The notes under the pieces are model-generated. The model made no database searches, was not told the DNA's origin, and was given only the letters and a program-made list of their open reading frames with translations. Both the position numbers and the translations under genes were made by a program. Of a stretch of 64,000 nt of DNA, positions 36 through 22,722 are shown piece by piece. This DNA comes from Rikenella microfusus (GTDB lineage Bacteria > Bacteroidota > Bacteroidia > Bacteroidales > Tenuifilaceae): the NCBI GenBank assembly GCA_020722565.1, contig DYKO01000010.1, forward strand, positions 42,673 to 106,672. Reading direction: 5' to 3'. How positions within the stretch are numbered: the first letter of the stretch is position 1; every line of letters begins with the position of its first letter.

Positions 36-1328
36 CTACCAATCAGTGGTATAGCTATGGTTGTAAATTCTATAGGTTTTTAATTCACCGGTGGCAGAAT
101 TGCGGTAATGTATGTACCCTGAAAGAAGCGATAGAGTTTTTCCTGCAGATGATGTTTCGGCAAGTTTAAGCGACTGATCGCTATTTACCTTTAAGGTATG
201 ATTACCTTTTCCTTGGAACGATTGACCAATATTATCAATCACAACCGGAGGTAATCCTTTCCATTCCAGAACCACCTTTTCAACAACAAATGGGGCCTCG
301 TATTTGGACCGTATGGTTAGATCGGCTAAAATTCCATTCACCATCGATTCATCCTTTGATATGGCAGTTAAATGAATGGGATCGCTAAGAAAAATAGATG
401 CCTTATTTGCTGCCACATCAAAATAAAAAGACTTCTGGACGGTTACGCCACCAAACATGTACTTAACCAGGATATTGTTTTCTGGATCCTCATAACAATT
501 TTCATAGTTGTACTTAACAACCACATTGTCGGGGTTGTTAACTACTGAGGTAATACGGGCGCATTCCGATTTGGTTGTTGGCTTCTTGGCTGTTGAAATG
601 GCTTTCCCGTTAAGTCTAAGGTAATACTTAAGTTCGCCAAGGTCGCTTTCCATTTCAACCAGTTCAATGGAACTCAATAAAGACTTGTAACGGGTAATGC
701 CCAGGTTGCACTGGTCAACCCTTCCATCCATAAAGTAATCCTTAAGATTGCCTAGCTCTGCAATGTTTTTTTCGATTTGTTCAACCGATTCCACTTTATC
801 CACCTGCTCAAGCAGTTCTTCCATTTGGCGGGTAAGTTCGCGATCGCGCATCTTGTAATCAAGAACGAGCATCTTCAGCTCCGATTCGGGGAAAGGATAC
901 TTAATGTGATACATATAGTAAACCGATTTATCGGTGCGCTGCCGTTTTTCCCAATAAAAATCTGTGACCTTTGCAAGGGATATCCCCTGTAAAAATGGTA
1001 CTTTACCCGACTGGGTAGTTGTGGTTGTAGCAAACTTTTCAAGGAAAAGATTGACGTTGTTATTGTAGCTGGCCTCCTCCTTCCTCACCTCCGACGAAGC
1101 TTTAACATTCTCAGCTACTGACGATACAATCTGAGCTTTTACATTGGATAGAGCATTTTGCTGCGCATCCTGAGCTGTAGGGCCAGTCCCAACCACAATA
1201 ATGTAATCCTTTTCCAAACCATTCACCCATTTGGGTTGCTTACCGCTCTTTTCCAGTAATTTATCCTGGGCAGGAGTTATTCCAATTACACCTATTACGG
1301 TGAGAGCCAGAAGTAAATATCTTTTCAT
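36..1328 (-). CDS. Exported hypothetical protein: N-terminal LPP20-like domain, coiled-coil middle, beta-rich C-terminus
   Basis: 430-aa ORF with a Sec signal peptide. 'KQPKWVNGLEKDYIIVVGTGPTAQDAQQNALSNVKAQIVSSV' resembles the LPP20 P-x-W...G-x-G...A...A pattern. Last complete gene of the 6184->36 operon. Confidence 0.6.
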   Translation of the reverse strand: MKRYLLLALTVIGVIGITPAQDKLLEKSGKQPKWVNGLEKDYIIVVGTGPTAQDAQQNALSNVKAQIVSSVAENVKASSEVRKEEASYNNNVNLFLEKFATTTTTQSGKVPFLQGISLAKVTDFYWEKRQRTDKSVYYMYHIKYPFPESELKMLVLDYKMRDRELTRQMEELLEQVDKVESVEQIEKNIAELGNLKDYFMDGRVDQCNLGITRYKSLLSSIELVEMESDLGELKYYLRLNGKAISTAKKPTTKSECARITSVVNNPDNVVVKYNYENCYEDPENNILVKYMFGGVTVQKSFYFDVAANKASIFLSDPIHLTAISKDESMVNGILADLTIRSKYEAPFVVEKVVLEWKGLPPVVIDNIGQSFQGKGNHTLKVNSDQSLKLAETSSAGKTLSLLSGYIHYRNSATGELKTYRIYNHSYTTDW

Positions 1329-1387
1329 AATTAAATATTTTTTATCCCAAAGGGGATTGGTGAGTTATAAAACCAATGTTACAAAAA

Positions 1388-1410
1388 CAGCAACCCCAAG
1401 GGGGTTGCTG
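1388..1410 (-). terminator. Intrinsic terminator-like hairpin inside the operon
   Basis: Perfect 10-bp stem cagcaacccc-aag-ggggttgctg, followed on the minus strand by TTTTTGT, just after the stop of ORF 1430..2008. Confidence 0.7.
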
Positions 1411-1429
1411 CATGTTCTTTTAAGATCAA

Positions 1430-2008
1430 TTAAGGACGTTCCTTTTCTAACTTGTCCATTTCCTCATTGAATACCTGCTCGAATTTCATTTTGTCGTAAT
1501 CGAGCTGCAGCTTCTGATCCTTTGAAATACGATCCTTGATATTGTTAAGAACCTGATCCTTAGGAACCTGAAGTGCCTGAAAAACCTGATACTTGCCATC
1601 CTTCATCTGTAAAGTTTTGGAGCAAGCAACCTCTACATTGTTGAGTTCCTGGTTGATCACCTCACGGGTCATCTGCTCAAACTTCTGCTCAAACTCCGAA
1701 GCATCGCCCAATTGACGCTCATTAACGTAACGGTCAGCTACCGATTTCATAGTGGTGCTAATACTACGTGAAAGGTTGGTTTGAGCATCAATACGAGCTT
1801 TACTCTTAGCAGTGCTAAGATCGCTGCTTATACCATTCCCTGTTCCCCTAAAGTTTTTGCCATCGGTATGGAACTCATCATCGTTGCAGGGTACATTTAT
1901 TTCCTTGCCAAAAGAAGAATCTGCTGCCTTTTTGGAACCACCACAACTTGCCAGTGTAAAAGCAAATGCAAAAGCACTGGCTAACATAATCATACTTTTC
2001 ATCTTCAT
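1430..2008 (-). CDS. LPP20-family lipoprotein
   Basis: 192 aa with lipobox LASC. 'FRGTGNGISSDLSTAKSKARIDAQTNLSRSI' matches the LPP20 pattern. Confidence 0.7.
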   Translation of the reverse strand: MKMKSMIMLASAFAFAFTLASCGGSKKAADSSFGKEINVPCNDDEFHTDGKNFRGTGNGISSDLSTAKSKARIDAQTNLSRSISTTMKSVADRYVNERQLGDASEFEQKFEQMTREVINQELNNVEVACSKTLQMKDGKYQVFQALQVPKDQVLNNIKDRISKDQKLQLDYDKMKFEQVFNEEMDKLEKERP

Positions 2009-2061
2009 AATCGTTCAAATTTTAGGTTAAACTTCGATTTAAAAACATATTTGTTATTTGA

Positions 2062-3033
2062 TTATTTATTCTGATAAAGCCATCCCCAATCCCAGTTGAA
2101 ATGAGATGCTGCACCCCAATGTGCCCATGACATTGCAATTTCCTTGCCAGCCTGAATCATCAATTTATCTTTTTCTACGGAATCGTCGTACTGTTTCATT
2201 TTAAAGTTCCAAACATTGGCTCCGTCGGCAAGCATTTTCTGGGTAATTTCATCGGTTAAGCGAACAGCATCGGCATAGCATTCCATGTCGGGGGTAATTT
2301 TACCCAAAAATTCCGCTGCTTTGTCGGCATTCATATTGGCCCAAGCAGCCTTGGCTCCTGCCAGGTACTCAGTACACTTATAGTTGGCATACTGCTTGTA
2401 AATCTCAATGGATAGATCCATGCTTTTGTCAAAGCACTCGCGGCAAACATCGGGAACGGAGAGTAAAACAAACAGTGCCTCCTCGTACTTGCGTTGTCCA
2501 GCAAGTGCTTGAGCTCCTTTAAGTACAACATCGCACTGGGAGTTGTAATACTCAATAATCTTTTCTTTGCCCTTTTCAATAAAGCCCTTAAATTGCCCAG
2601 CCCTTACATTTATATTCTTAAGTGCCTGAATGTACGCCTTTTCATCGGTTTGCCCAACACCCTTAACGGAAATACTGGTTTGGCTGAAAATGTTTTGACT
2701 GGCTGCATCAACAATGTAAAATGTTACATCAAGATTGAGTGCCTGCATGGGAGGTGCAGTAGGTGTAACCTCCTTACTCATAACAGATACCAAGGGAACA
2801 ATGCAAAACCTTGGGTTTGCAGCGCTAGCACCTAAACCATTCTGAGTAGCAATCTGGCTCATTTTATTAACCAGCATTTGACGGGACTCAGCAGGAATAT
2901 TAGTTGCCTGGTCAGGGACAATAGCGGCAAGGGCAATCCTTCCTAAATCATCAGTTTTTCCCTGGCTATTCTGTGCATTAAGGTTCATTGCGATACCTAT
3001 AAGCACTATAATGGAAGCAATTATACGTTTCAT
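2062..3033 (-). CDS. Exported hypothetical protein (alpha/beta N-domain plus helical TPR-like C-domain)
   Basis: 323 aa with a signal peptide ending in AQ. The C-terminal half is amphipathic and helical ('KYEEALFVLLSVP', 'NADKAAEFLGKI'). Confidence 0.6.
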   Translation of the reverse strand: MKRIIASIIVLIGIAMNLNAQNSQGKTDDLGRIALAAIVPDQATNIPAESRQMLVNKMSQIATQNGLGASAANPRFCIVPLVSVMSKEVTPTAPPMQALNLDVTFYIVDAASQNIFSQTSISVKGVGQTDEKAYIQALKNINVRAGQFKGFIEKGKEKIIEYYNSQCDVVLKGAQALAGQRKYEEALFVLLSVPDVCRECFDKSMDLSIEIYKQYANYKCTEYLAGAKAAWANMNADKAAEFLGKITPDMECYADAVRLTDEITQKMLADGANVWNFKMKQYDDSVEKDKLMIQAGKEIAMSWAHWGAASHFNWDWGWLYQNK

Positions 3034-3045
3034 ACTCTACATGTA

Positions 3046-4005
3046 TTATTTTTCTCCAAGAATTAACCAGGCTTCACCTAATCCCCGCAGGTATAGCTTA
3101 GAAGGAATTCCCATTCCATTAAGGTATTTACGAAGACCGCTAACGAATGAACGTGTATCAACGGCACGTTGGCGTCCCTTTTCATCGGTTCTCATCATTG
3201 GAATGCGAACCTGTTCAAACTTCATGAAGTTTTCGGTAGCATCTGAGAGATTGAACCGGCCTTCTACGCAATTGTCAGCAAACCAATCCTCGATAATTGT
3301 GGAAAGTTCTGTTCCATCGCTGCCAAACTCTGATTCGAGGTTTTCGCCCCAGTTGCCCCAAACCTTAATCTGAACCTTAACCTCACGACCCTTGGCAAAC
3401 ATATCCTCAAAATGGCGCATCAAGCCAGCGTTAAAATTATCCATGTGACTGAGAACGGCTTCCTCCAGCAAGAGTTCAGGAGAGGCAGCGGTAGATGGGT
3501 TACCGGCTCCTGCTACGCCTGAAACCTGTTTAGCAGTGTACGCATCGAGACCTTTAAGGTTGAATACGATGTACTTTTGGGGACCCTGACGTTTCACATC
3601 AAAATCAAGGTCCATAATAATATCAGCCTTGGCAACACGTTTTAAGGCATCAATAGGGCTTTCGGCCATCTCCGAACCACTCGATGAACTTGTTAGCAAT
3701 GATGACTCGGCACGTTCCTGCTCCAAATTTTTGAGTTCCTGTTCCAGATCCTTGAGAGGGAACCCCCTATCAGCCATTATCTGACCCATTTTAGTAATTA
3801 CCAAACGCAAATCGGGATCGCTTTGAAGTGCTGTTTTGTAATCGGGCAGCACCTGCTTCATACCCTGATTTTGAAACTCCATTTTATACCCGCGACTAAT
3901 GCAATACTGGTCGCTGGGAACCACCATAATTATGGGTTTCTTTGCCTGCCCAAAGGCCAGAAAAGTCAGGGCTAGTAGCGCAGATGATAGTATATATTTT
4001 CTCAT
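3046..4005 (-). CDS. DUF6175-like exported protein (CsgG/TolB-N-like fold suspected)
   Basis: 319 aa with a signal peptide. 'QAKKPIIMVVPSD' and 'KADIIMDLDF...FNLKGLDAYTAKQV' were recognised from memory as DUF6175-type. Confidence 0.55.
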   Translation of the reverse strand: MRKYILSSALLALTFLAFGQAKKPIIMVVPSDQYCISRGYKMEFQNQGMKQVLPDYKTALQSDPDLRLVITKMGQIMADRGFPLKDLEQELKNLEQERAESSLLTSSSSGSEMAESPIDALKRVAKADIIMDLDFDVKRQGPQKYIVFNLKGLDAYTAKQVSGVAGAGNPSTAASPELLLEEAVLSHMDNFNAGLMRHFEDMFAKGREVKVQIKVWGNWGENLESEFGSDGTELSTIIEDWFADNCVEGRFNLSDATENFMKFEQVRIPMMRTDEKGRQRAVDTRSFVSGLRKYLNGMGIPSKLYLRGLGEAWLILGEK

Positions 4006-4017
4006 GGTAAATGTATT

Positions 4018-4539
4018 TTAAAATCCTGCATCTAGGCGGCGAGCAATGCCATCGGCTTCGAGTTGCTTACGAAGTGCATCGTACATCACCTGAACATAGA
4101 TGGCCACCTTGTAGCCCTTTTTCATTTTAATTCGATCCTCCCCTGCGGGATCGGCATCGTTTGTAACCGCAATGTACTGCAAAAATTTACCCCCTACCTG
4201 GAAAAAATTTTCAAAGTAATCGGCATGAATTTGCTCCGCATTGGGCTGGGAGCAAATGGGGGGAGTGGTAGCAGAACCGGCACCGCCGGGAAGCCCTTTA
4301 AATATACAAGCTGCAACTGCGGCTTCCTTGGCATTCATAACAGCCAAAGGGACACTCTTACCGTAACCCCATACCTTAAATACCTTGGTACCATCCTGGC
4401 CAACGCCAACGGGTTCAATTTCGTAGTTGTACTGGCTATTCCATAGAATCTTTCGTTCCTTGCGCGATTGAGCAGATGCGGGTAATACCACTGCCACGGC
4501 CAAAACTGCTAATGTAATCGATAGCAATACTCTTTTCAT
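4018..4539 (-). CDS. Exported hypothetical protein (LPP20/FlgT-N-like fold suspected)
   Basis: 173 aa with signal peptide ASA|Q. Contains 'KVWGYGKSVPLAVMNAKEAAV' and C-terminal 'YKVAIYVQVMYDALRKQL'. Confidence 0.55.
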   Translation of the reverse strand: MKRVLLSITLAVLAVAVVLPASAQSRKERKILWNSQYNYEIEPVGVGQDGTKVFKVWGYGKSVPLAVMNAKEAAVAACIFKGLPGGAGSATTPPICSQPNAEQIHADYFENFFQVGGKFLQYIAVTNDADPAGEDRIKMKKGYKVAIYVQVMYDALRKQLEADGIARRLDAGF

Positions 4540-4558
4540 AACTTATTGAATTATTTAG

Positions 4559-6184
4559 TTAGAACATCAATTTAATGCCAAACATGGTTGACATGCCCTT
4601 TCTATCGGTAAATATATCAGTCCATGTTAAACCGGTATCTCCATTGTCGTTTTCAGCATTACCAATAAACGAATATAACCCCAAGCCTCCCATGACTTGA
4701 ATGTAATGTCTCAAATTTAGTGCCAAATTTGCACCGGGTTTCAAATAAAGAACATTTAGAGCTCCATTGGTAAAATCGCTATGGCTAGCCTGTTCCTTAC
4801 CAAGGCCAATATATGTACGAAGTTCAACATTGCGTGTAAGCATGAATCCTTTAGCCAAACCTACTCCATAGTGTAAAAAAGTTACTCCATCCTGAATAGG
4901 ATAATCTTTTATCTGTGCACCACCCTCAACGTAAACGAATAAAGCTTTTATGTTAATATAACGTCCCATGCGGGCATCAAAACGGCCATACACTCCTCCT
5001 ACTTCACCAGTCTCGTAACCCAACAGCAGCTCAACCCCAAAATCGTTTTGCTGGCGCAGCAGGTAGCCCTCACGTAACTTTCTACCAGCAGTTTGGTAAA
5101 ACTCCGAGGTGGGCATATCACCCCTTGCCACCTGACGATTATCAACAATTTTGCTGGTTGCGCGAATAACCCCACGGAAGTGAGGCTCCACCTTATTTGC
5201 CTTTTCGTTGTAAACATACTCATATGCAAAGTAACGGTGGTCGCATTTTAAACCCTCCTTTAAACCAATTTTAGCCCTTATAGGACGAACCTGATGGATT
5301 GTAGTTTTAACCATAAATTCCTCTTGATTCATCTCGAGATAATAAAGGGTTTCATCATAGCCCTTTTGAACCAGCTCTTGAAAGAGCTGCTCCTCTGTTT
5401 TTTGCTTGATAAATTTACCTAATTGTGTATCCTCAGTTGGCTGCGATGCTGTAACATATACTGTTGTTTTAGTCACAAATTTGATGGGAATGCTTAACTC
5501 CTGAAACTTTTTATTTTTTTCAGCTTTTACCTCAGGGGAATCCTCGGGGTATATCCAACAATCATATAGGGCATTTTGTATCTCCTGATTAAAGTCAACC
5601 TTAAAGAGGTAGCCATTAACGGTGGCCTTCCAACCCTTCATTTTTTCAATCTTGGCCTCTTTCATATTCATTACATTCTGATAATCCAGAAGCAAAATAT
5701 AACTCTTCTCAATCAAACGGTTTCCGTAATCTTTTAGCATACTTTCGCCGCGTTTGGTAGCCTGCGCCTTAATGTACGCTGCATCGGTTGCATTAAACAT
5801 ACCACGGTCGAACACTAGTTCAAGATCCATGGCTCCATCTTCCTTTCGATTGTACCATTTGCTTACTATGGCATTTGCAACACCTTTACTAAGAAGGTAA
5901 CTTTCAATTACCTGTTCTGGTTTAACTGAAACATCACTGCGAGAGTAAGGAGATTCAATTACTAAGTTATCTAAATTGTTGTTGTAATACTTATCAGTAA
6001 AGGCGACCTTGTTAAAAAGGCCTTCTACCTCCGAAGCATGATTTTGAGTTGGAAATTTCAGATAAAATGTGGTTATTGAACTTCTGTCGTAGGTCGATGG
6101 GATCTTATTCCCTTTTTCAACATCCTGGGCAAAACCTGCAACACCCAGCAAAATAAAAGCAATTACTGACAACAGTTTTTTCAT
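4559..6184 (-). CDS. Outer-membrane protein: soluble N-region plus C-terminal small beta-barrel
   Basis: 541 aa with a signal peptide. The last ~160 aa are alternating amphipathic strands ending in 'MFGIKLMF', a terminal Phe typical of BAM substrates. Confidence 0.6.
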   Translation of the reverse strand: MKKLLSVIAFILLGVAGFAQDVEKGNKIPSTYDRSSITTFYLKFPTQNHASEVEGLFNKVAFTDKYYNNNLDNLVIESPYSRSDVSVKPEQVIESYLLSKGVANAIVSKWYNRKEDGAMDLELVFDRGMFNATDAAYIKAQATKRGESMLKDYGNRLIEKSYILLLDYQNVMNMKEAKIEKMKGWKATVNGYLFKVDFNQEIQNALYDCWIYPEDSPEVKAEKNKKFQELSIPIKFVTKTTVYVTASQPTEDTQLGKFIKQKTEEQLFQELVQKGYDETLYYLEMNQEEFMVKTTIHQVRPIRAKIGLKEGLKCDHRYFAYEYVYNEKANKVEPHFRGVIRATSKIVDNRQVARGDMPTSEFYQTAGRKLREGYLLRQQNDFGVELLLGYETGEVGGVYGRFDARMGRYINIKALFVYVEGGAQIKDYPIQDGVTFLHYGVGLAKGFMLTRNVELRTYIGLGKEQASHSDFTNGALNVLYLKPGANLALNLRHYIQVMGGLGLYSFIGNAENDNGDTGLTWTDIFTDRKGMSTMFGIKLMF

Positions 6185-6339: not shown

Positions 6340-6363
6340 AAAAGAGGGTAAAAACCCTCTTTT
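6340..6363 (-). terminator. Intrinsic terminator after alkaline phosphatase
   Basis: Stem aaaagagggt-aaaa-accctctttt with A/T tracts. Confidence 0.7.
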
Positions 6364-6384: not shown

Positions 6385-7794
6385 TCATTTAAGCCCCGAT
6401 GCTTCTAAAAGTTTTTTGGGTATATCGGTATTATCGAGCATTGGGGCAAATAGTTCCTGTCCTACGCCAATTACGTAGACTGGTACGGGTTGTCCGGTAT
6501 GGGAGCCAGTAGTCCAGCCAAACCCGGCCTTTTGGTTGACAATTTGAATGGCATACTCCGAAATGGGATCGGTTTTGCTGTAGGTAGTTACTTCCTCTGC
6601 ATTATTGTTTGAACCATATACATTCAAGTATGCCTTTCGGAGCACCTCTTTTTCAGAATCGGTAAGTTGTATACTTCCTGATAAACCAGTATATTGATTC
6701 AGTAGGGAAAGCAAATCGTTGAAAGTTGCCCTTGGATTGCTGGTTCGGAATTCATGAACTATTTGATGAAGCTGTTCTTTTGATACTTTTTGGAACTGAA
6801 GCAGGGCGGGATGAACATCGTACTTATTTGACCTGTTACCAATTGAAAAACCTCCGGTTTCATGGTCAGCAGTAACCAATATAAGGGTCTGCGAAGGGTT
6901 TTTGCGATAGAATTCAACAGCAACGTCCACCGCTCTGGAAAAGGCAATGACATCGTGAATAACAGTAGCTGCGTCGTTATCATGGGCAGCCCAGTCAATC
7001 TTACCCCCCTCAACCATAATGAAAAAACCGTTGGGATTGTTTACTACCTCAATTGCCTTACGAGTAATATCAGCCAAACTCACTCCTTCGGTCGTACGAT
7101 CAATCTCATAGTTTAAGGAACTTCCGGGAGCAGGATTGGGTGAGGAGTAAACAATTGGCTTAGTTCCTAGTTTAACTAAAGAATCGACGCCGCTAAATGT
7201 TGATGTAAATTCATAACCATAGGCTTTACCCAAATCGAAAATTGAGGGTGATAAGGTATCCCCTTTTAACCCATAGGGTTGAAGTAATCCGCCTGAAGCA
7301 AAAAAATCGTATCCGGATTTTAGCATTTGACGGGCAATCTGGTAGTATTCATTTCGACTTTTCACATGAGCATAGAATGCAGCCGGCGTGGCATGATCGA
7401 TGCTCACACTGGTAAGGATGGCCACCTTTCTACCAGAGTCCTTAAACTTTTTTGCAATGCTATATAGGGTATCTGTTCTACTAGTATTTAGGCCAATGGT
7501 GTTAATTGATGTTTTGTACCCGGTTGAGAGTGCAGTTCCTGCAACTGCTGAACAGGTTATGAATCGGTTTGCAGCGTAAGTAGTTGAAGACGATACAACA
7601 GGAAATTTTGTAAAAGTGATTCCAGCGGTATCGTTTAGCACACTATCGGCATACAGTTGGGCGGCAGTTACATGCGATACACCCATGCCATCGCCAATAA
7701 ATAGAAAAACATACTTGGCCTGATGCTTAGTGGTTTCACACCCCACTAAAAGTAGGGCCAAAAGGTATAAAAAAATAGGATACTTAGTTCTCAT
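6385..7794 (-). CDS. phoA: Alkaline phosphatase (PhoA family), lipoprotein
   Basis: Motifs GDGMG, (T)CSA catalytic Ser, HATPAAFYAH, EGGKIDWAAHDND, TADHETGG and HTG; lipobox LVGC. Confidence 0.9.
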   Translation of the reverse strand: MRTKYPIFLYLLALLLVGCETTKHQAKYVFLFIGDGMGVSHVTAAQLYADSVLNDTAGITFTKFPVVSSSTTYAANRFITCSAVAGTALSTGYKTSINTIGLNTSRTDTLYSIAKKFKDSGRKVAILTSVSIDHATPAAFYAHVKSRNEYYQIARQMLKSGYDFFASGGLLQPYGLKGDTLSPSIFDLGKAYGYEFTSTFSGVDSLVKLGTKPIVYSSPNPAPGSSLNYEIDRTTEGVSLADITRKAIEVVNNPNGFFIMVEGGKIDWAAHDNDAATVIHDVIAFSRAVDVAVEFYRKNPSQTLILVTADHETGGFSIGNRSNKYDVHPALLQFQKVSKEQLHQIVHEFRTSNPRATFNDLLSLLNQYTGLSGSIQLTDSEKEVLRKAYLNVYGSNNNAEEVTTYSKTDPISEYAIQIVNQKAGFGWTTGSHTGQPVPVYVIGVGQELFAPMLDNTDIPKKLLEASGLK

Positions 7795-15366: not shown

Positions 15367-18300
15367 TTACTTAACCAACTCAAACCTCACGCTAAAACCA
15401 AAGTTGGAGTTGGTGGTTCTAAAGGTTCTGGAAACCTTGGGATTATTTAGAGTTCTGTCGAAGAATAATCTGATGGTAACCTGCTCGTTTATTCTGTAGT
15501 CGGCAGATGTTTTAATAGTGCTTATTAACTGACCGGCAATAACATCGTTGGAATCCTCAACTAATTTACGAAGCACTGTGGTGTTATCGCGCAGCGAAAA
15601 GTCGAGGGTAAGCCTTAAATCGCTTTTCATGGCTTTTTTCCCGCCATCCTCGGCTTGAAAAATTAGAGGTAGGTCTTCAAATCGATAACCAGCCCCAATA
15701 ATGTACTCACTGGTATAAATTTCGGTAAGCTGGTTATTGGCAAAACTCATGGCCAACGAACGGCTGTTCTTAAGTTCCAGTCGAGTGGTAAGATTGTTCT
15801 GCCACCCCATGTCAAGCCCTACCAGAGGAGTAAACATCTCATTAATGGCAACATTGGTAATTTCATTTTGCGGAATAAAATCGTTATTAATGTTGCGAAC
15901 GTAGCTGAAGCCATCATCCTCTGGCTGATAGGAAAGGTTTGTGATAAACGCCCCAATGGTGTAAACTGAGCGATATCCATGGTTAATGGTAATGGATTTG
16001 AACCAATGCTTGAATGGTTTCATCTTGGCTAATCCATCGTAGGTAAGCTGCCAGTTGGGCATGGGGACCAATGGGAAATCGCGAAGCGAAACTTTGTTGG
16101 GCGAGGTATTGGTGTAGGCAGCTAGAAACGATGCCTTCAGTACATCTTGCGATAGAGGACTGTACCCATCGGGAAATCCGGTTAGGGAATCAACTACTGA
16201 GGGATCGTAACCCTGTGATGGATTGGGTACCCGTAAATCGCGTAACCTATTGGCAATTATTAAACGATTTTGCTTCATTTGCTCAAAAGTTTTGGAGCTT
16301 CCCGAACGTTTTTTGCCTTCAAAAGTTGTACCTATGGTAATTACACTAATACTGAAGTTCCCTATGGTTAACGGGCTTAATATTCTATACGATCCCAACT
16401 GATCAGCCTTAAAAATTTTGCTGTTGCTCTTGCCAAAAGTGCGGGTTGCGGTAACATCGAAGCGGAAGCCCGGAAGCGGTTCAATTGAAGCGCGGAAGTT
16501 GAGATTTTCATTACGGGTAAATACGACTGGCGTATTAAAAGATGTATCACGGGTTAGCCAGCCATTTGTAGCCGCTTTCCATGCAAACTCTGGATCCTGC
16601 CATCCTGAAACAAATTCCCAACCCGGAGCCAATAGCCCATTAATATTTTCATTTCCAAAGTAATTTACGCCGGGTTTATATCCAGGGAGCAATGTGCCAT
16701 TTGTTTCGGTGTAGGAAACGCCAATACTTTTCAAACTCATTAAAAGACGAAGCGTTGTTTCCATTGCAAATTTGGCTGGGTTTATCTTATCGGGAACCTT
16801 ACCCTCAACCACTACCCTACAGCCTTTATAATCCTTATCCGATTTAATAGCGACCTTTGTATCGCCACGAATCTGAGTGGTTACCTTTATCTCTTTCCCC
16901 TCCTGATTATAAACCTTAACGGTAACCCTATCGGTTTTAAGTTTGTGGGTTATAATTTTGGTTGCATTTTCGCGTAGGTTAACTTTATCTTCCTTATACT
17001 TAACCGTACGGGTTTGAGGTGCCGCGCCTCGGGCTCGTTGGTCAAACTGCTGATTAACCCGTTTAAGGTAACCCACCTTATTAAATAAGGTGTTGATATT
17101 GATCTGTCCGTTTAGCTGAATGGTATTGGAATTCTGAATGGTATTACCAGGGTCGAATCGGGATGTATCGGCCAATATGGGGCCGGCCTGCCAAAGGTAT
17201 AAACCTGAATACCTTGTGGTAACATTTACCCAATTTAGGAGTGGTACTTTACTTAAAGGTAATGAGTAGGTTATGTTAAACTGATGATTGTACATGGTAT
17301 TACGGCCCCCCCTAAGTATGTTCTGCCATACGGAATCCTTCCATTGCTCATAACGATCCCTATCGCGGTATCGGTCAACCATTCCCTCAGGCTCATCAAT
17401 TCTGGCGGTTGAAGTGGCAGTAAAATCAAACTTAATAGACTGGGTGATGTCCCAGTTAAGGACATAATTCCTGTTCCACATAAAATCCTTAGAAAAGGTA
17501 GGTGAAAAAACCTGATTGGGATTGGCAATGTTACGGAACTGCTGCTCATAGTAATTCCTGTTCATGTCGGTACGAAACGATAGCTGCGTTGGGAAAAGGT
17601 TAAAATTGAAATCGCGTATAAGGCTTAGGTAGCTGGAACTCAAGAATTTTAGTTTCCCAAATGGGGTAATATACTTTGGCTGTCGGTTATAGTTATAGGT
17701 AAAAGCACCCCTTATGTTTCGTTGAATTCTATGGTCGAGCCTGATATTACGGGAGAAAACCTCGCTGTAGGCATAACTTATAGAAAAATTAGAAATATCC
17801 CACAACCTTGGCTTCGAGCCCATTTTATCAATTTTGACATTTGTAAAGTTTATACTGCGCCGTCGGGTGTAATCCTGTGCAATACGTTTGAGTGAATCGC
17901 GCTCGCGCGAAGTGGCATTCCGCAATGCATCAGCCATAAGAATATCAGGTTCGAGGGGATTGTATTGCGGATTGGACATGGTTTTACCAAAACCAATGAA
18001 CAAGGGTATCTTGATGTTCAACGATTTTGGGAAGAATTTTCCTAGTTCAAGTGTTGAATTTACATCGTACTGGTAAACCGTTTCCTTGCTGCGCTCATTC
18101 ACCTTTTTTTCAATGGAACCGAAACCCGGAGTAATAGTGGTACCGGCAACGGTAACCATACCCAAATCGGCCAATTTGGCCGACATACGGGCATTTGCTG
18201 CCCAACCGCTTTGATCGTTGAAGTTTGTTAAACGAAACTCGTTAAACCAAACCACCACCGACTTAGGCATCCGATCGTTAACAGGATTACGAATACCCAA

Positions 18301-21300
18301 CATTACAACCTTAACATTACTGAGATTGGGATTACCAGTTACCTTTATTTTTCGGTTGCCATCCATGGTTTCATAAATGGTGCTTAGGGTAATCAATGAG
18401 CCAGGTTTCTGCATGGCATTATTCCTGGCTACTTTAAGTTCAACCAGCTTCTCAAGATCGATATCAATAGCATTCTCCCTCGGCCAAACAATTTCCCTAT
18501 CTCGCTCTCGGTTGTTGTAGTAAAAACCATAAGGTGTGAGCTTTAGGGGAACCTCAAACTCATAGTAATTGGAGTTATAATCGGTACCCAAACGGATAAA
18601 GGCGGTAACCTCGTAATCGTTTAAGGGATAGCCCTCAATAGCCTCAGCATGGATATCCATTTTCAACCGTTTGTACTGACGAACATCGATATTGACATTC
18701 TTGAATGCTGCCCGGGCATCGCCATCGGCCAAATCAACATTTCTGTACTCCATGGACTGCTCATTCAGCTGTATTAGCTGGGGCTGGCTTGGGTCAACAA
18801 CACGGTCAACACCCGGGGGTAAAACATAGTTTACGGGGGTCCGCTTATCGTTTTCTTCGATATTAACAGTTGATATTGCAAGGCTACCCAACGGTAAATC
18901 GCTAACAGGCATACCCTCTTGTCCCTGAATTAACGAGTAGTTATACTTGCGCCATTCACTCCTAACCAGTTCAAGCGTTGCAAAACGCAAAATGACAGTA
19001 TCCTCAAATCCCCTTAAGAACATTCTAATAAAGCGAATGGATTTAAAATCCTCAATAGGTCCAACAACCCTTTCGTACTCAGAAATCGGAATCTTAAACT
19101 GGTACCACTTTACCTGTTTATTCTTGAGCTTGTCCTTTTCACCCAGAATAACATTGGTAATAAAGTTTCGGCCTACTACCATGTCCTGAGGTCGAAGCGC
19201 GATACGGTACTGATAGTATGCTTCATTTTCGTTCATGGTATTATCTGTACCCAGTTCCTCAACATCGGGGGTTGAGTAGCTCTGCTGCGAGGTTGTTTGA
19301 GTGGCGACCGGTGAGTTATTCTCGGTACCGTTAAAATACTTATACCTATCGAGAATAGAAGCCCGTTGCTGATCATAAAAACCATCGAGGTAATGCCTGA
19401 AGTTGTCGCCCGAAGGGTCACTCTCAAAGCCGGCCAAAATATTGTTGTCGGTAATTCTATTTCGCAGCTGATTGATGTATTCGGCAAAAAATGAAACCTC
19501 ATCGGGCAACCCGTCACCAACCAAATCGATTAATGATGATAAACCATCAAGCCCAACATCCTGAAAGGGGCGTTTACCGGGATCGTTATCGAACCCAACG
19601 GGTAGGTACTGCTTTGTAGGCACTCGCCCCCATGCGGTTGTATCGGTTTTGTCCAGGTCTTCAACCGAAGTGGGCAGCCCATTCTCAAACGATTTACGAC
19701 CATCCCTAAGTATATCCTCCGAAATGTTTCCAAGGTTGATATAGAAATCCCCTCCCGTGTGAGTAGAGTCGTAAACAAAGGGATCCATAAGCCAAAACTC
19801 GATGTACTCAATATTTGATGCTTCAAAATCGGTAGTACTGAGGTTTCGCATAATACCGCCCCAACTGTGTTGGGGATTAATTAGCTTACCATTGGCATCA
19901 ATATCGTTGAAGTTATAGTTGAATTGTCCGCGCTCGCGGGGATAGAAAGCCAAGTTAAGTACGGCAATATTTGTGGGCTGACCCTGTGGGGTATTTTTGT
20001 TTGGAAAGAGTTCGCGCTCAAAAATTTCCCTCACAAAATGGTTCCCCTGTAGCTCCTTGTTGTTACGAATGTACGATGGGGTAAGCGAAGTATTCCTAAG
20101 AAAAAGAGGATCGATATAATACCATGCCAAATGGGCACGATTATATCCAAACTGCAAATTGTTAGAAACCGAAGCCTCCGGGAAAAGGGCAGATTGCCCC
20201 TGAGGGGTACTAGCTAACTTCCAATCAATCCATGAGCGCAAATCGAGCCTGGTGCTGCTTCCCTCAAAATCGTCAAGGTAAACGGTTCCAGCCTTTCCAA
20301 TAGCTCGGGAATGCCCTGGGTATAGCTGAGCAAATTCGGCATCAATGGTTATTGTTGATTTCTCCTTGGTTTGAATAAATGGCAACCAATCAACCATTTT
20401 GGTAAGAAGCTTCGATTCGGTTTGATAGGATGTGTTTAAGCCCCAAATGGTATTCGATATGGCCTCGTTACCGAAGTTGACCTTCTGGGTTAGAGGCCTT
20501 TCGGTAAGATTGATAACAGTTGCTCCCACCTGAAAGTTATCGGAAAAGCGGTAATCGAAATGGGACCCCACAAGTGTTTTGGTTTGCATGCTGAAAAGAG
20601 CGTTGCTCTCCACCGCAACCCGAATTGGAGTCCCTGATTCCAGCAATCCCTGGTTGATAATTCGAACCGTCCCCAAATTGTAATCGACAATGAAATCAAC
20701 ATCCTCCTGTAACTTGGCGCCACCTGCTGTAACCACAACTGCCCCTTTGGGAATATTGGGGGCATTCAGGAAAATTTCGGAACCCCCAGTTGATTTGTAC
20801 GATCCTCCTATAATAAACTTATTCTTATCGGCAATTTGCCGGGCCTTGGTGAGAGTTGAGTCGTACAATTCCTGGAAAACATACTTTTGAGCAATAACAG
20901 GATCTCCAATCCTAGCTGCTAGGTCTCTTCCAAAGGGTTCAAGAAGAGGAAAAATGATTTTTCCATTGGCTGGATTAATGGTAGTTCCCTCTATAAAGTC
21001 GAAAACACCATCGGGAAAAGCATCGAGCTGATTATTCAGGTTATCTAAATTGAGAACCCTAATTAGTGGTATGTTAGCTAAATTTCCTTCATTCAAAAAG
21101 TTGATTGGGGTACCGGTAGCGTCATCCTGGTAAAAAATGTCAAGCCTAAAATCGTCCTTACTAATCTGGAAGGCGTTCATGGAATAAATATTCTTCATCA
21201 TCAACCGCCATGTGGGCATTTTAGGGCTAAGATTGGTGCCTTTTAACAACTTAAGGATTAGTGCATTAGGTGCTTCAACTCCATCGGTTGAGAATTCGCC

Positions 21301-22722
21301 AACCTTATAGGTTTGGCCATTATAAGTGTACTCAAACGCTACGGCTAGCACCTCATCGGCATTCAGTGCCGATAAAAGTGAAATATAGCCCAACGTGGGG
21401 TTAAGGGTAAACTCATTTGGTGAGAGCTTACGGGCGTATTCAATCTTTTCGAAGTCGCGACCGCCACTAAATCCAAGCAGTTCAAGGGGAGAAAGCACAT
21501 TGTTAACCTCGGCAATATCTCTAATTCCGGAATAGGTTGTAGTCATCAACTCATAAAGATTATTAAGTTGATTACTGGCAGGGCCTGAACCAGTTTGGGT
21601 AAAAATATTGGGGGCAAAAATGTTATTTTGGGCTTCGCCCAAATCGGCAAAAGCAATAATATTGCGAGAATTCTCAAAGTTGGCCTGCTTGTTGGTAACC
21701 CATATCTCTATTTTGGTAATGTTTATGCCGGAGTTGATTACCGGAAGGTTCATTAAAGCCCTATTATAATTTTCTCTGAAGAAGTGCGATAAAAAGAAAT
21801 GCCTATTGGCATCGTACTCGTCGGCTTTAATTTGAAAATCGCGGATTTGTGCACCTCCCTTTACTTCCATTACCTGAGTTTGTCCATTTTGTTTTGAAAC
21901 CACGCTAGTAACATTGAGCTTACCAAACTTCAGCTGGGTTTTAATACCAAAAAGACTCTGGCTACCGGTAATCAAAGTTCCGGGCAACGGTAGCGAAACG
22001 TTTCCCGCCTCAATACGCTGAATTATTTCATCCTCAAAACCGTTGTACTCAACCTTAACATTATTCTCAAAATCGAATGTTGCCTCAGTATTGTAGTTGA
22101 CCTCCATTTTTAATTTTTCGCCAATCTTCCCGGAAACATTCATTTGAATTTTCGATTGGAAATCGAAGGTTGTATTGCGTCTCTGATCCAATGGCAGCGC
22201 AGGATTATCGGTTTTGGCACTCGAAACTCCAAAAACCAGCTCGGCATTACCCTGGGGAATAATTTCAATGGTGTTGCTACCAAATACACGGTCAAAGGTT
22301 TCGCCCCCCACCTGCATCCTGGGCAGAATGCCATCGCCCTTCCCAGAAAACTCCCCTGTTTGCTTTTGTCGCCAGTACTCTCGCATCGATTTATCTATCC
22401 GATACGTACGATACTCATCGGCCGAGAGAACCCGTGGCGTTTCAATGTTAATATTACCTAGCTTCCGGTAAATTATGTATTGGTTTGTAGTGGCATCGTA
22501 AACCACCTCCTCCCTGATGTTAGACGGCTCAGAAAGGTAGAGCGGCGAATGGGGAGGCACAGGCGACCAAATTCCCGGTTGCTTGATGGGCAAAGGTAAA
22601 CGTGCTGTATCGGGTTGAGTAAATGGAAATGTTTGAGCAATAACTGCCTGGGCAAAAAGAATAAGCCCAACAATCATTAACCCGTATCTTATATGGAAAA
22701 ATGTTGCGTTCTCTTTTCCCAA
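15367..22722 (-). CDS. sprA: Type IX secretion system outer-membrane translocon SprA/Sov
   Basis: 2451 aa with 'GKIGEKLKMEVNYNTEATFDFEN', 'YLDDFEGS' and 'WFNEFRL'; ruvA-sprA-gcvH synteny; TTG start. Confidence 0.95.
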   Translation of the reverse strand: MGKENATFFHIRYGLMIVGLILFAQAVIAQTFPFTQPDTARLPLPIKQPGIWSPVPPHSPLYLSEPSNIREEVVYDATTNQYIIYRKLGNINIETPRVLSADEYRTYRIDKSMREYWRQKQTGEFSGKGDGILPRMQVGGETFDRVFGSNTIEIIPQGNAELVFGVSSAKTDNPALPLDQRRNTTFDFQSKIQMNVSGKIGEKLKMEVNYNTEATFDFENNVKVEYNGFEDEIIQRIEAGNVSLPLPGTLITGSQSLFGIKTQLKFGKLNVTSVVSKQNGQTQVMEVKGGAQIRDFQIKADEYDANRHFFLSHFFRENYNRALMNLPVINSGINITKIEIWVTNKQANFENSRNIIAFADLGEAQNNIFAPNIFTQTGSGPASNQLNNLYELMTTTYSGIRDIAEVNNVLSPLELLGFSGGRDFEKIEYARKLSPNEFTLNPTLGYISLLSALNADEVLAVAFEYTYNGQTYKVGEFSTDGVEAPNALILKLLKGTNLSPKMPTWRLMMKNIYSMNAFQISKDDFRLDIFYQDDATGTPINFLNEGNLANIPLIRVLNLDNLNNQLDAFPDGVFDFIEGTTINPANGKIIFPLLEPFGRDLAARIGDPVIAQKYVFQELYDSTLTKARQIADKNKFIIGGSYKSTGGSEIFLNAPNIPKGAVVVTAGGAKLQEDVDFIVDYNLGTVRIINQGLLESGTPIRVAVESNALFSMQTKTLVGSHFDYRFSDNFQVGATVINLTERPLTQKVNFGNEAISNTIWGLNTSYQTESKLLTKMVDWLPFIQTKEKSTITIDAEFAQLYPGHSRAIGKAGTVYLDDFEGSSTRLDLRSWIDWKLASTPQGQSALFPEASVSNNLQFGYNRAHLAWYYIDPLFLRNTSLTPSYIRNNKELQGNHFVREIFERELFPNKNTPQGQPTNIAVLNLAFYPRERGQFNYNFNDIDANGKLINPQHSWGGIMRNLSTTDFEASNIEYIEFWLMDPFVYDSTHTGGDFYINLGNISEDILRDGRKSFENGLPTSVEDLDKTDTTAWGRVPTKQYLPVGFDNDPGKRPFQDVGLDGLSSLIDLVGDGLPDEVSFFAEYINQLRNRITDNNILAGFESDPSGDNFRHYLDGFYDQQRASILDRYKYFNGTENNSPVATQTTSQQSYSTPDVEELGTDNTMNENEAYYQYRIALRPQDMVVGRNFITNVILGEKDKLKNKQVKWYQFKIPISEYERVVGPIEDFKSIRFIRMFLRGFEDTVILRFATLELVRSEWRKYNYSLIQGQEGMPVSDLPLGSLAISTVNIEENDKRTPVNYVLPPGVDRVVDPSQPQLIQLNEQSMEYRNVDLADGDARAAFKNVNIDVRQYKRLKMDIHAEAIEGYPLNDYEVTAFIRLGTDYNSNYYEFEVPLKLTPYGFYYNNRERDREIVWPRENAIDIDLEKLVELKVARNNAMQKPGSLITLSTIYETMDGNRKIKVTGNPNLSNVKVVMLGIRNPVNDRMPKSVVVWFNEFRLTNFNDQSGWAANARMSAKLADLGMVTVAGTTITPGFGSIEKKVNERSKETVYQYDVNSTLELGKFFPKSLNIKIPLFIGFGKTMSNPQYNPLEPDILMADALRNATSRERDSLKRIAQDYTRRRSINFTNVKIDKMGSKPRLWDISNFSISYAYSEVFSRNIRLDHRIQRNIRGAFTYNYNRQPKYITPFGKLKFLSSSYLSLIRDFNFNLFPTQLSFRTDMNRNYYEQQFRNIANPNQVFSPTFSKDFMWNRNYVLNWDITQSIKFDFTATSTARIDEPEGMVDRYRDRDRYEQWKDSVWQNILRGGRNTMYNHQFNITYSLPLSKVPLLNWVNVTTRYSGLYLWQAGPILADTSRFDPGNTIQNSNTIQLNGQININTLFNKVGYLKRVNQQFDQRARGAAPQTRTVKYKEDKVNLRENATKIITHKLKTDRVTVKVYNQEGKEIKVTTQIRGDTKVAIKSDKDYKGCRVVVEGKVPDKINPAKFAMETTLRLLMSLKSIGVSYTETNGTLLPGYKPGVNYFGNENINGLLAPGWEFVSGWQDPEFAWKAATNGWLTRDTSFNTPVVFTRNENLNFRASIEPLPGFRFDVTATRTFGKSNSKIFKADQLGSYRILSPLTIGNFSISVITIGTTFEGKKRSGSSKTFEQMKQNRLIIANRLRDLRVPNPSQGYDPSVVDSLTGFPDGYSPLSQDVLKASFLAAYTNTSPNKVSLRDFPLVPMPNWQLTYDGLAKMKPFKHWFKSITINHGYRSVYTIGAFITNLSYQPEDDGFSYVRNINNDFIPQNEITNVAINEMFTPLVGLDMGWQNNLTTRLELKNSRSLAMSFANNQLTEIYTSEYIIGAGYRFEDLPLIFQAEDGGKKAMKSDLRLTLDFSLRDNTTVLRKLVEDSNDVIAGQLISTIKTSADYRINEQVTIRLFFDRTLNNPKVSRTFRTTNSNFGFSVRFELVK

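Follow-up and report, generated by a model that had tools for sequence, protein, structure and literature searches.

A six-gene envelope cassette of Bacteroidota with FlgT-, LPP20- and CsgG-like parts: a candidate scaffold at the outer membrane

Near the start of a 64,000-nucleotide stretch from a Rikenella microfusus assembly (GCA_020722565.1, contig DYKO01000010.1, positions 42,673 to 106,672; this whole stretch is called the window), six open reading frames (ORFs) follow one another on the minus strand, and the question raised by this locus is whether their products build one structure at the outer membrane or are merely encoded together. A first-pass annotation, made from the sequence, described them as a co-directional operon with gaps of 12-53 bp and one of about 100 bp, and proposed an undescribed outer-membrane complex. 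The genes, each named by a letter and the length of its product in amino acids, are A541, B173, C319, D323, E192 and F430, and the gaps calculated from the ORF coordinates (A-B 19, B-C 12, C-D 12, D-E 53 and E-F 101 bp) agree with that description. The six genes are proposed here to encode subunits of one periplasmic scaffold anchored in the outer membrane, not a pore, a reading whose chances are put at about even. It draws on the export signals of all six products, the folds of two of them, and a gene order and domain fusions that recur in distant relatives.

Export signals and folds of the six products

All six N-termini are basic and then hydrophobic in the manner of export signals, as judged by eye and by conservation, without a dedicated predictor. 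In the five non-lipoprotein families the position where signal peptidase I is predicted to cleave is followed by an invariant Gln (Q20, Q24, Q20, Q21 and Q21), which fits the Q-rule of Bacteroidetes, whereby Gln follows this site (PMC5837995). F430 and B173 have signals of this kind instead of a lipobox, and that of C319 ends in FGQ-A, with neither a Cys nor a lipobox. E192 is the lipoprotein, with the lipobox LASC and a lipid-bearing C22 that is invariant among its orthologues. The sequence from this Cys reads CGGSKKAAD and does not contain K-(D/E)2, which acts after the lipid Cys as a signal for surface export (PMC5080379), so that E192 probably faces the periplasm. Invariant Cys pairs in the D, E and F proteins were also counted in favor of folding outside the cytoplasm. 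For none of the six proteins was an enzyme or defense match found in Pfam, NCBIfam or PADLOC, and a defense system was rejected as a candidate on the PADLOC result; the sole family above threshold in Pfam and NCBIfam is DUF6175, on C319. A signal peptide on every product, one of them a lipoprotein, and no recognizable enzymatic motif, as the first-pass annotation had it, are thus all upheld.

The clearest structural assignment was obtained for A541 (4559-6184, minus strand), whose AlphaFold2 model (predicted local distance difference test score, pLDDT, 84.6) consists of an alpha/beta region (residues 36-290), a beta region (293-378) and a barrel (384-541). By Foldseek the model matches FlgT (PDB 3w1e, E 4.5e-5, probability 1.00, 384 columns; 8z5n, E 9e-4), and its first two regions parallel the boundaries of the N, M and C domains of Vibrio cholerae FlgT at 24-109, 121-287 and 292-377 (bioRxiv 10.64898/2025.12.02.691832). 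The whole-chain template-modeling (TM) score with FlgT is low (0.17-0.23), so the arrangement of the domains may differ, and no Pfam FlgT model was matched at E<=1 by any of 33 A-family members. The barrel region, with some eight long strands within residues 384-540, matches Ail, OmpX, OmpA, OprF-N and NspA with a Foldseek probability of 1.0 and TM scores of at most 0.75 on the target; E-values for the first four are 7e-6 to 1e-3. The terminal residue, F541, is invariant in the family, 18 of 33 orthologues touch Pfam OMP_b-brl below threshold, and the A protein of some relatives is only 404-470 amino acids long and ends where the barrel would begin. The model shows A541, then, as a three-domain FlgT-like fold (about 36-378) followed by an OmpX/OmpA-type barrel (about 384-541), in line with the FlgT-like segment and terminal barrel recognized earlier from the sequence.

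C319 (3046-4005, minus strand) matches Pfam DUF6175 (PF19672) over positions 1-293 of 293 with 377.1 bits (E 6.7e-113; curated cut-off 23 bits) and is the only copy in the genome. At 90% identity the family divides into at least 7402 clusters. Neither DUF6175 nor PF19672 was found mentioned in the literature searched; as the family has no described function, membership explains nothing. The AlphaFold2 model (pLDDT 80.2) has its top Foldseek matches in chains of CsgG (4uv2; E 4e-4 to 1e-3, probability 0.98-0.99, TM 0.22-0.33), which bears out the CsgG/TolB-N-like appearance noted at first. GNA1162 (4hrv), PelC (5t11), LpoB, FlgT and HpaA come next, with TM scores on the target of 0.5-0.6 for PelC and, in a match weaker than those to CsgG and PelC, 0.43 for the C-terminal domain of LpoB (4q6l, E 0.018). 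Over the whole query the TM score is 0.2-0.28, and from the secondary structure of the model the C-terminal half is read as containing another alpha/beta domain. The CsgG hidden Markov model (HMM) was not matched by C319, for which Pfam gave only DUF6175 at E<=1, and Csg families were found nowhere in the operon by Pfam or NCBIfam.

Two further products carry remote LPP20/FlgP-like domains, namely E192 (1430-2008, minus strand) and the N-terminus (about 32-150) of F430 (36-1328, minus strand). Against Pfam LPP20 (PF02169, curated cut-off 25.9 bits) E192 itself gives no match at E<=1 and F430 remains below the cut-off with 15.6 bits. The model is touched, however, by 21 of 26 E192 orthologues (best E 9.4e-6) and 14 of 29 F430 orthologues (best E 5e-4), while relatives encoded in the same kind of cassette score 36-43 bits, above the cut-off, and are aligned by hhalign with E192 at 96% and with the F430 N-domain at 88% probability. 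The one relevant match in PDB sequences, made below threshold by the E192 profile, was 4kzs, an 'LPP20 lipofamily protein'. The rest of F430, with invariant C256 and C278, can only be guessed to consist of a helical linker and a beta-rich part. Only 231 relatives of this protein were found, all of the named ones being called hypothetical, so F430 is taken as a lineage-restricted addition.

B173 (4018-4539, minus strand) is a small, highly conserved exported protein that belongs to the core of the cassette and has no Pfam family, although its own family holds 1176 clusters at 50% identity. The first-pass annotation had placed an LPP20-like module in three products; the assignment stands for E192 and F430 and is only suggestive for B173, for which hhalign reached no more than 6-52%. 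A 108-member alignment of the B family is colinear with LPP20-like domains at hhalign probabilities of only 25-52%, and B173 may be a divergent domain of this type. In D323 (2062-3033, minus strand) an alpha/beta domain at the N-terminus (about 25-160) is followed by a domain of TPR-like helices, recognized through TPR/ARM_TT21 matches in 18 of 30 orthologues, and by an aromatic tail; C167, C200, C220 and C252 are invariant. Nothing significant was obtained in PDB sequence searches with the single proteins, the profiles of the six families or the 108-member alignment. Paralogy among the six proteins was rejected, as hhalign aligned only their signal peptides, besides weak E-F and B-F links. 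The assignments differ in level: B173, D323, E192 and F430 are known from sequence comparison, A541 and C319 from models too.

Gene order, fusions and borders of the cassette

When one genome per species was searched with C319, 41 loci were collected, mostly from metagenome-assembled genomes of Bacteroidales; they include Perlabentimonas gracilis and assemblies assigned to Mariniphaga, Draconibacterium and Paludibacter. The order A-B-C-D-E-F, traced by tblastn with all six proteins, is complete in 28 of the 41; another seven are cut by contig ends and colinear as far as they reach, E lies upstream on the other strand in three, and no E is detectable in three. Identity across these loci falls to 55% for C and 26% for A. 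B to F are nevertheless more conserved than the neighboring alkaline phosphatase in the same genomes (C versus phosphatase, 92% vs 70% in locus L001 and 73% vs 46% in L017), which was counted for a common assembly. The phosphatase gene itself (6385-7794, minus strand, taken as such from its first-pass label and its sequence) adjoins the operon in 15 of the 41 loci, the closer relatives, and its adjacency is probably local synteny and not a functional link.

Beyond these relatives the cassette is patchy. DUF6175 was found in 26 of the 401 genomes sampled from the phylum (20 of 179 genera), whereas all 14 controls lacked it, and the cassette was found in one of the seven other genomes of the same order listed; environmental Bacteroidota are among its carriers, as is a human-faecal virome contig. 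Comparison of 16 of the DUF6175-bearing survey loci revealed a recurring core that spans classes, in which an A-like protein is accompanied by B, C and D and, in most cases, by an LPP20 protein.

Two kinds of domain fusion were found in these lineages. First, B is joined to DUF6175: ORFs of 442 and 411 amino acids in L053 and L059 carry both domains, and among ten long representatives of the B family all seven of 459-520 amino acids contain the full DUF6175 (222-391 bits), one of 275 amino acids contains its first third, and two have none. Second, LPP20 is joined through a beta-rich linker to D in L055, L056 and L059, in proteins of 440-471 amino acids with LPP20 scores of 39-43 bits, and the domain behind LPP20 is aligned with the D N-domain by hhalign at 96%. 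No Pfam family was found for the distant B-like and D-like proteins. The membrane anchor shifts as well. A lipobox-like motif was flagged by a simple regular expression on B or on a B-C fusion in many lineages (e.g., L046 and L048-L051), and where A is without a barrel, in L044, L045 and L060, at least one copy of B is flagged. Such fusions and shifts of anchor are expected of subunits of one membrane-tethered complex.

Several variant cassettes hold additional genes. In three of the same class an extra protein of 259-281 amino acids is encoded (L046:9387-10214, L047:10950-11795 and L048:5105-5884), of which the L046 member scores 21.0 bits against a Pfam cut-off of 20.8 for CsgG and 21.8 against 22.3 for LpoB. 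An unknown protein of 520-570 amino acids replaces the FlgT-like one in L047 and L048, and neither was detected in L046. Two distant loci (L054:2848-6619 and L049:827-4558) contain, inside or beside the cassette, a trio of genes for a PEGA/CarboxypepD_reg protein, a Cache-HAMP adenylate/guanylate cyclase and an unknown protein of 419 amino acids, which hints at second-messenger control in some lineages. The virome contig, L060 (MT836698.1, 'UNVERIFIED: Bacteriophage sp.', human faeces), has 9 kb and carries A without a barrel, B, an ORF of 192 amino acids, B, DUF6175 and D in this order; no phage genes were recognized, no phage-family scan having been made, and the scaffold seems to be bacterial DNA that was included among virome sequences. 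A mobile element was accordingly rejected for the cassette: no plasmid match was found, and this scaffold is the sole 'phage' match.

The operon is bounded on both sides, because a terminator-like hairpin lies upstream and the gene beyond F430 is convergent. The hairpin (6340-6363, minus strand), a 10-bp stem followed by a T-run, stands 3′ of the alkaline-phosphatase gene and is separated from the start of A541 by an AT-rich leader of 155 bp. Just outside the window and directly downstream of F430, here and in 15 related loci, the convergent gene (L043:7610-7990) encodes 126 amino acids with a SiaC-like Y-x-N-T-x-S-S-K motif, and by this motif it would be a fifth SiaC-like paralogue beside the four labeled in the window by the first-pass annotation. 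About 9 kb upstream of the operon, an ORF of 2451 amino acids occupies 15367-22722 on the minus strand.

A second hairpin lies within the operon, between E192 and F430 (1387-1411, minus strand), about 20 nucleotides past the E192 stop codon. It reads GCAGCAACCCC-CTT-GGGGTTGCTG and is followed by a T-run. Its core CAGCA...TGCTG is invariant, and the 2.84-Mb genome has no second copy of the motif. The hairpin is kept in 18 related loci, where 91% of the cells are paired and six pairs are changed on both sides; changes in the 5′ arm are compatible with G-U pairing and those in the outer stem are compensatory. A known RNA was rejected here for want of any Rfam family match. Probably it is an intrinsic terminator, an attenuator or an mRNA-stabilizing element that sets F430 apart from A to E. 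Conservation of the sequence itself is unusual for a terminator, and a protein-binding or processing site may be involved.

A proposed scaffold and its alternatives

A flagellar part and a flagellar relic were considered as candidates. FlgI was not found in this genome, which is 99.7% complete and in which positive controls were detected, so the absence of flagella assumed in the first-pass annotation is confirmed on this count. FlgI was found in only 7 of 25 cassette-bearing genomes, presumably those of Ignavibacteria-like lineages, and there flgI and the cassette are on separate contigs or some 220 kb apart. With FlgI absent here and unlinked elsewhere, the cassette is neither a flagellar part nor a relic, and the latter candidate was rejected.

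The assembly is envisaged as suspended from the outer membrane on its periplasmic side. A541 would be fixed there by its eight-stranded barrel, too small for a channel, and would extend its FlgT-like three-domain module into the periplasm, while E192 would be fixed by its lipid and present its LPP20/FlgP-like domain. B173 would pair with C319 and its CsgG/PelC/LpoB-type fold, and D323 with an LPP20 domain, either of E192 or of F430; the fusions and anchor swaps thereby yield concrete predictions of which subunits touch. F430 would be an accessory, and the conserved hairpin before it would give it an expression of its own or a reduced one. By analogy with FlgT, FlgP and FlgO of the Vibrio H-ring, with PelC and with CsgG, the subunits would probably oligomerize into a ring or lattice that braces or organizes the outer membrane or carries another structure. 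A precedent without a pore exists in the H-ring, a ring set anchored by lipoproteins (bioRxiv 10.64898/2025.12.02.691832). A scaffold is favored over a channel for three reasons. First, the only barrel is OmpX-sized. Second, C319 has neither a lipid anchor nor a CsgG sequence signature. Third, inner-membrane, energy and cargo genes do not accompany the cassette: no inner-membrane, ATPase, cargo-like repeat or large-barrel genes were found in or beside the operon. The tight spacing of A to D (12-19 bp) was counted for one assembly, and the proposal of an undescribed complex is consistent with the conserved order and the domain fusions, no paper on the family having been found in the literature searched.

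Several points weigh against this scaffold. Interaction and oligomerization of the subunits are inferred, not directly observed; on the query the Foldseek matches attain whole-chain TM scores of just 0.17-0.28, and every link by sequence is a distant one; no fold is assigned to B, to D or to the C-terminal half of F; and the products contain no peptidoglycan-binding domain. Patchiness is what tells most against a pure bracing function, as occurrence in 26 of 401 genomes argues against general housekeeping. It fits rather an accessory, niche-specific function, which may involve an unlinked substrate.

Unlikely, and yet the best of the alternatives, is that the cassette forms the outer-membrane end of a machine that exports or anchors an extracellular polymer or fiber, like CsgG-CsgE-CsgF, PelB-PelC or HfaB. 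C319 would then be a ring-forming periplasmic adaptor, with F430, B173 or the product of some gene outside the cassette as its cargo. The structures that C319 matches best (CsgG, PelC and GNA1162), the TPR-like domain of D323, as in PelB, and the extra protein that reaches the CsgG cut-off in a variant cassette would all suit such a machine, as would an accessory-like distribution appropriate to a matrix or adhesion trait and the Cache-HAMP-cyclase sensor in or beside two distant loci. However, C319 lacks the lipobox and the Pfam match of a CsgG, the sole barrel is of OmpX size, and neither the operon nor its conserved flanks contain glycosyltransferase, inner-membrane or amyloid-repeat genes; B173, moreover, is far too well conserved, and too frequently found in fusion with C, for a secreted fiber subunit.

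It is less probable again, and distinctly so, that the genes are merely co-transcribed and that each product works on its own in the periplasm or the outer membrane. A shared assembly is, after all, inferred and not drawn from interaction data, some lineages can do without E and F or have them at another place, and the hairpin sets F apart from the other genes. This is difficult to reconcile with two independent kinds of fusion, B-C and LPP20-D, with a core order that is kept across classes despite 26-55% identity, and with anchors that shift between subunits in a compensating way.

Regulators that control cell-wall synthesis or remodeling from an outer-membrane position, in the manner of LpoB, the activator of PBP1b, are very improbable: C319 does match the fold of the LpoB C-terminal domain, the extra L046 protein nearly attains the Pfam LpoB cut-off and the products appear outer-membrane-anchored and periplasm-facing, but the LpoB match is weaker than those to CsgG and PelC, no penicillin-binding protein (PBP) or division genes are adjacent here, and a cassette in so few genomes of the phylum, and in one of seven listed from the order, is too unevenly distributed to serve core growth. 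Lpo-type activators are not known to have been described in Bacteroidota, and such regulators would fill their place.

Comparison with known systems

The folds are of known kinds, whereas the cassette as a whole is large and not covered in the literature searched. The lowest Foldseek E-values of the DUF6175 model are those with the periplasmic-domain fold of CsgG (PF03783; PDB 4uv2, 4uv3), a protein whose transmembrane hairpins build a 36-stranded channel in the nonamer, and a related variant cassette holds a protein at the Pfam CsgG threshold. Unlike CsgG, C319 is not a lipoprotein, does not match the CsgG HMM and superposes with a low TM score, and csgA-, csgB-, csgE- or csgF-like genes do not accompany it. 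The best superpositions on the target are those with PelC of the PelB-PelC system (PDB 5t0z, 5t11, 9h80) and with GNA1162/DUF799 (4hrv), at TM 0.5-0.6, and a small ring-forming alpha/beta protein with a TPR partner resembles C319 with D323. PelC and GNA1162 are, however, lipoproteins of about 140-170 amino acids, in contrast to the 319 residues and apparently two domains of C319, which has no lipobox, and neither a PelB-type porin nor pel genes are found nearby. The Lpp20 operon of Helicobacter pylori (HP1454, HP1456 and HP1457) likewise encodes several exported LPP20-type proteins, and function is unclear in both cases. It has no FlgT-like, DUF6175 or barrel component, and the LPP20 copies in the window fall below the Pfam cut-off of PF02169.

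With the Vibrio H-ring (PDB 3w1e, 8z5n), which surrounds the LP-ring of the flagellar motor, the cassette shares a FlgT-like three-domain protein, A541, and an LPP20/FlgP-like lipoprotein, E192, together with small alpha/beta proteins of the CsgG/LpoB/PelC fold group, represented by C319 and perhaps by the D323 N-domain. FlgO, which was not itself among the matches, presumably belongs to this fold group. Both systems would be tethered beneath the outer membrane, and a pore would be absent from both. The cassette differs in that it has no Pfam FlgT match, no flagellum and no MotX/MotY context, that A541 is anchored by a barrel of its own, that B, D and F have no H-ring counterpart, and that in flagellated relatives it occurs unlinked to flgI. 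It may tentatively be suggested, though this is somewhat doubtful, that Bacteroidota carry a flagellum-independent counterpart of the H-ring or basal disk, in which FlgT-like, FlgP/LPP20-like and CsgG/LpoB-fold proteins form several rings or a lattice under the outer membrane. A ring or lattice in this position would be a new structural element in the envelope of a major phylum and would bear on how flagellar motors gained their outer disks. If the counterpart exists, the phylum holds an unseen periplasmic structure that may be visible to cryo-tomography, and the ring builders would be an old, free-standing envelope module that was later recruited by flagellar motors.

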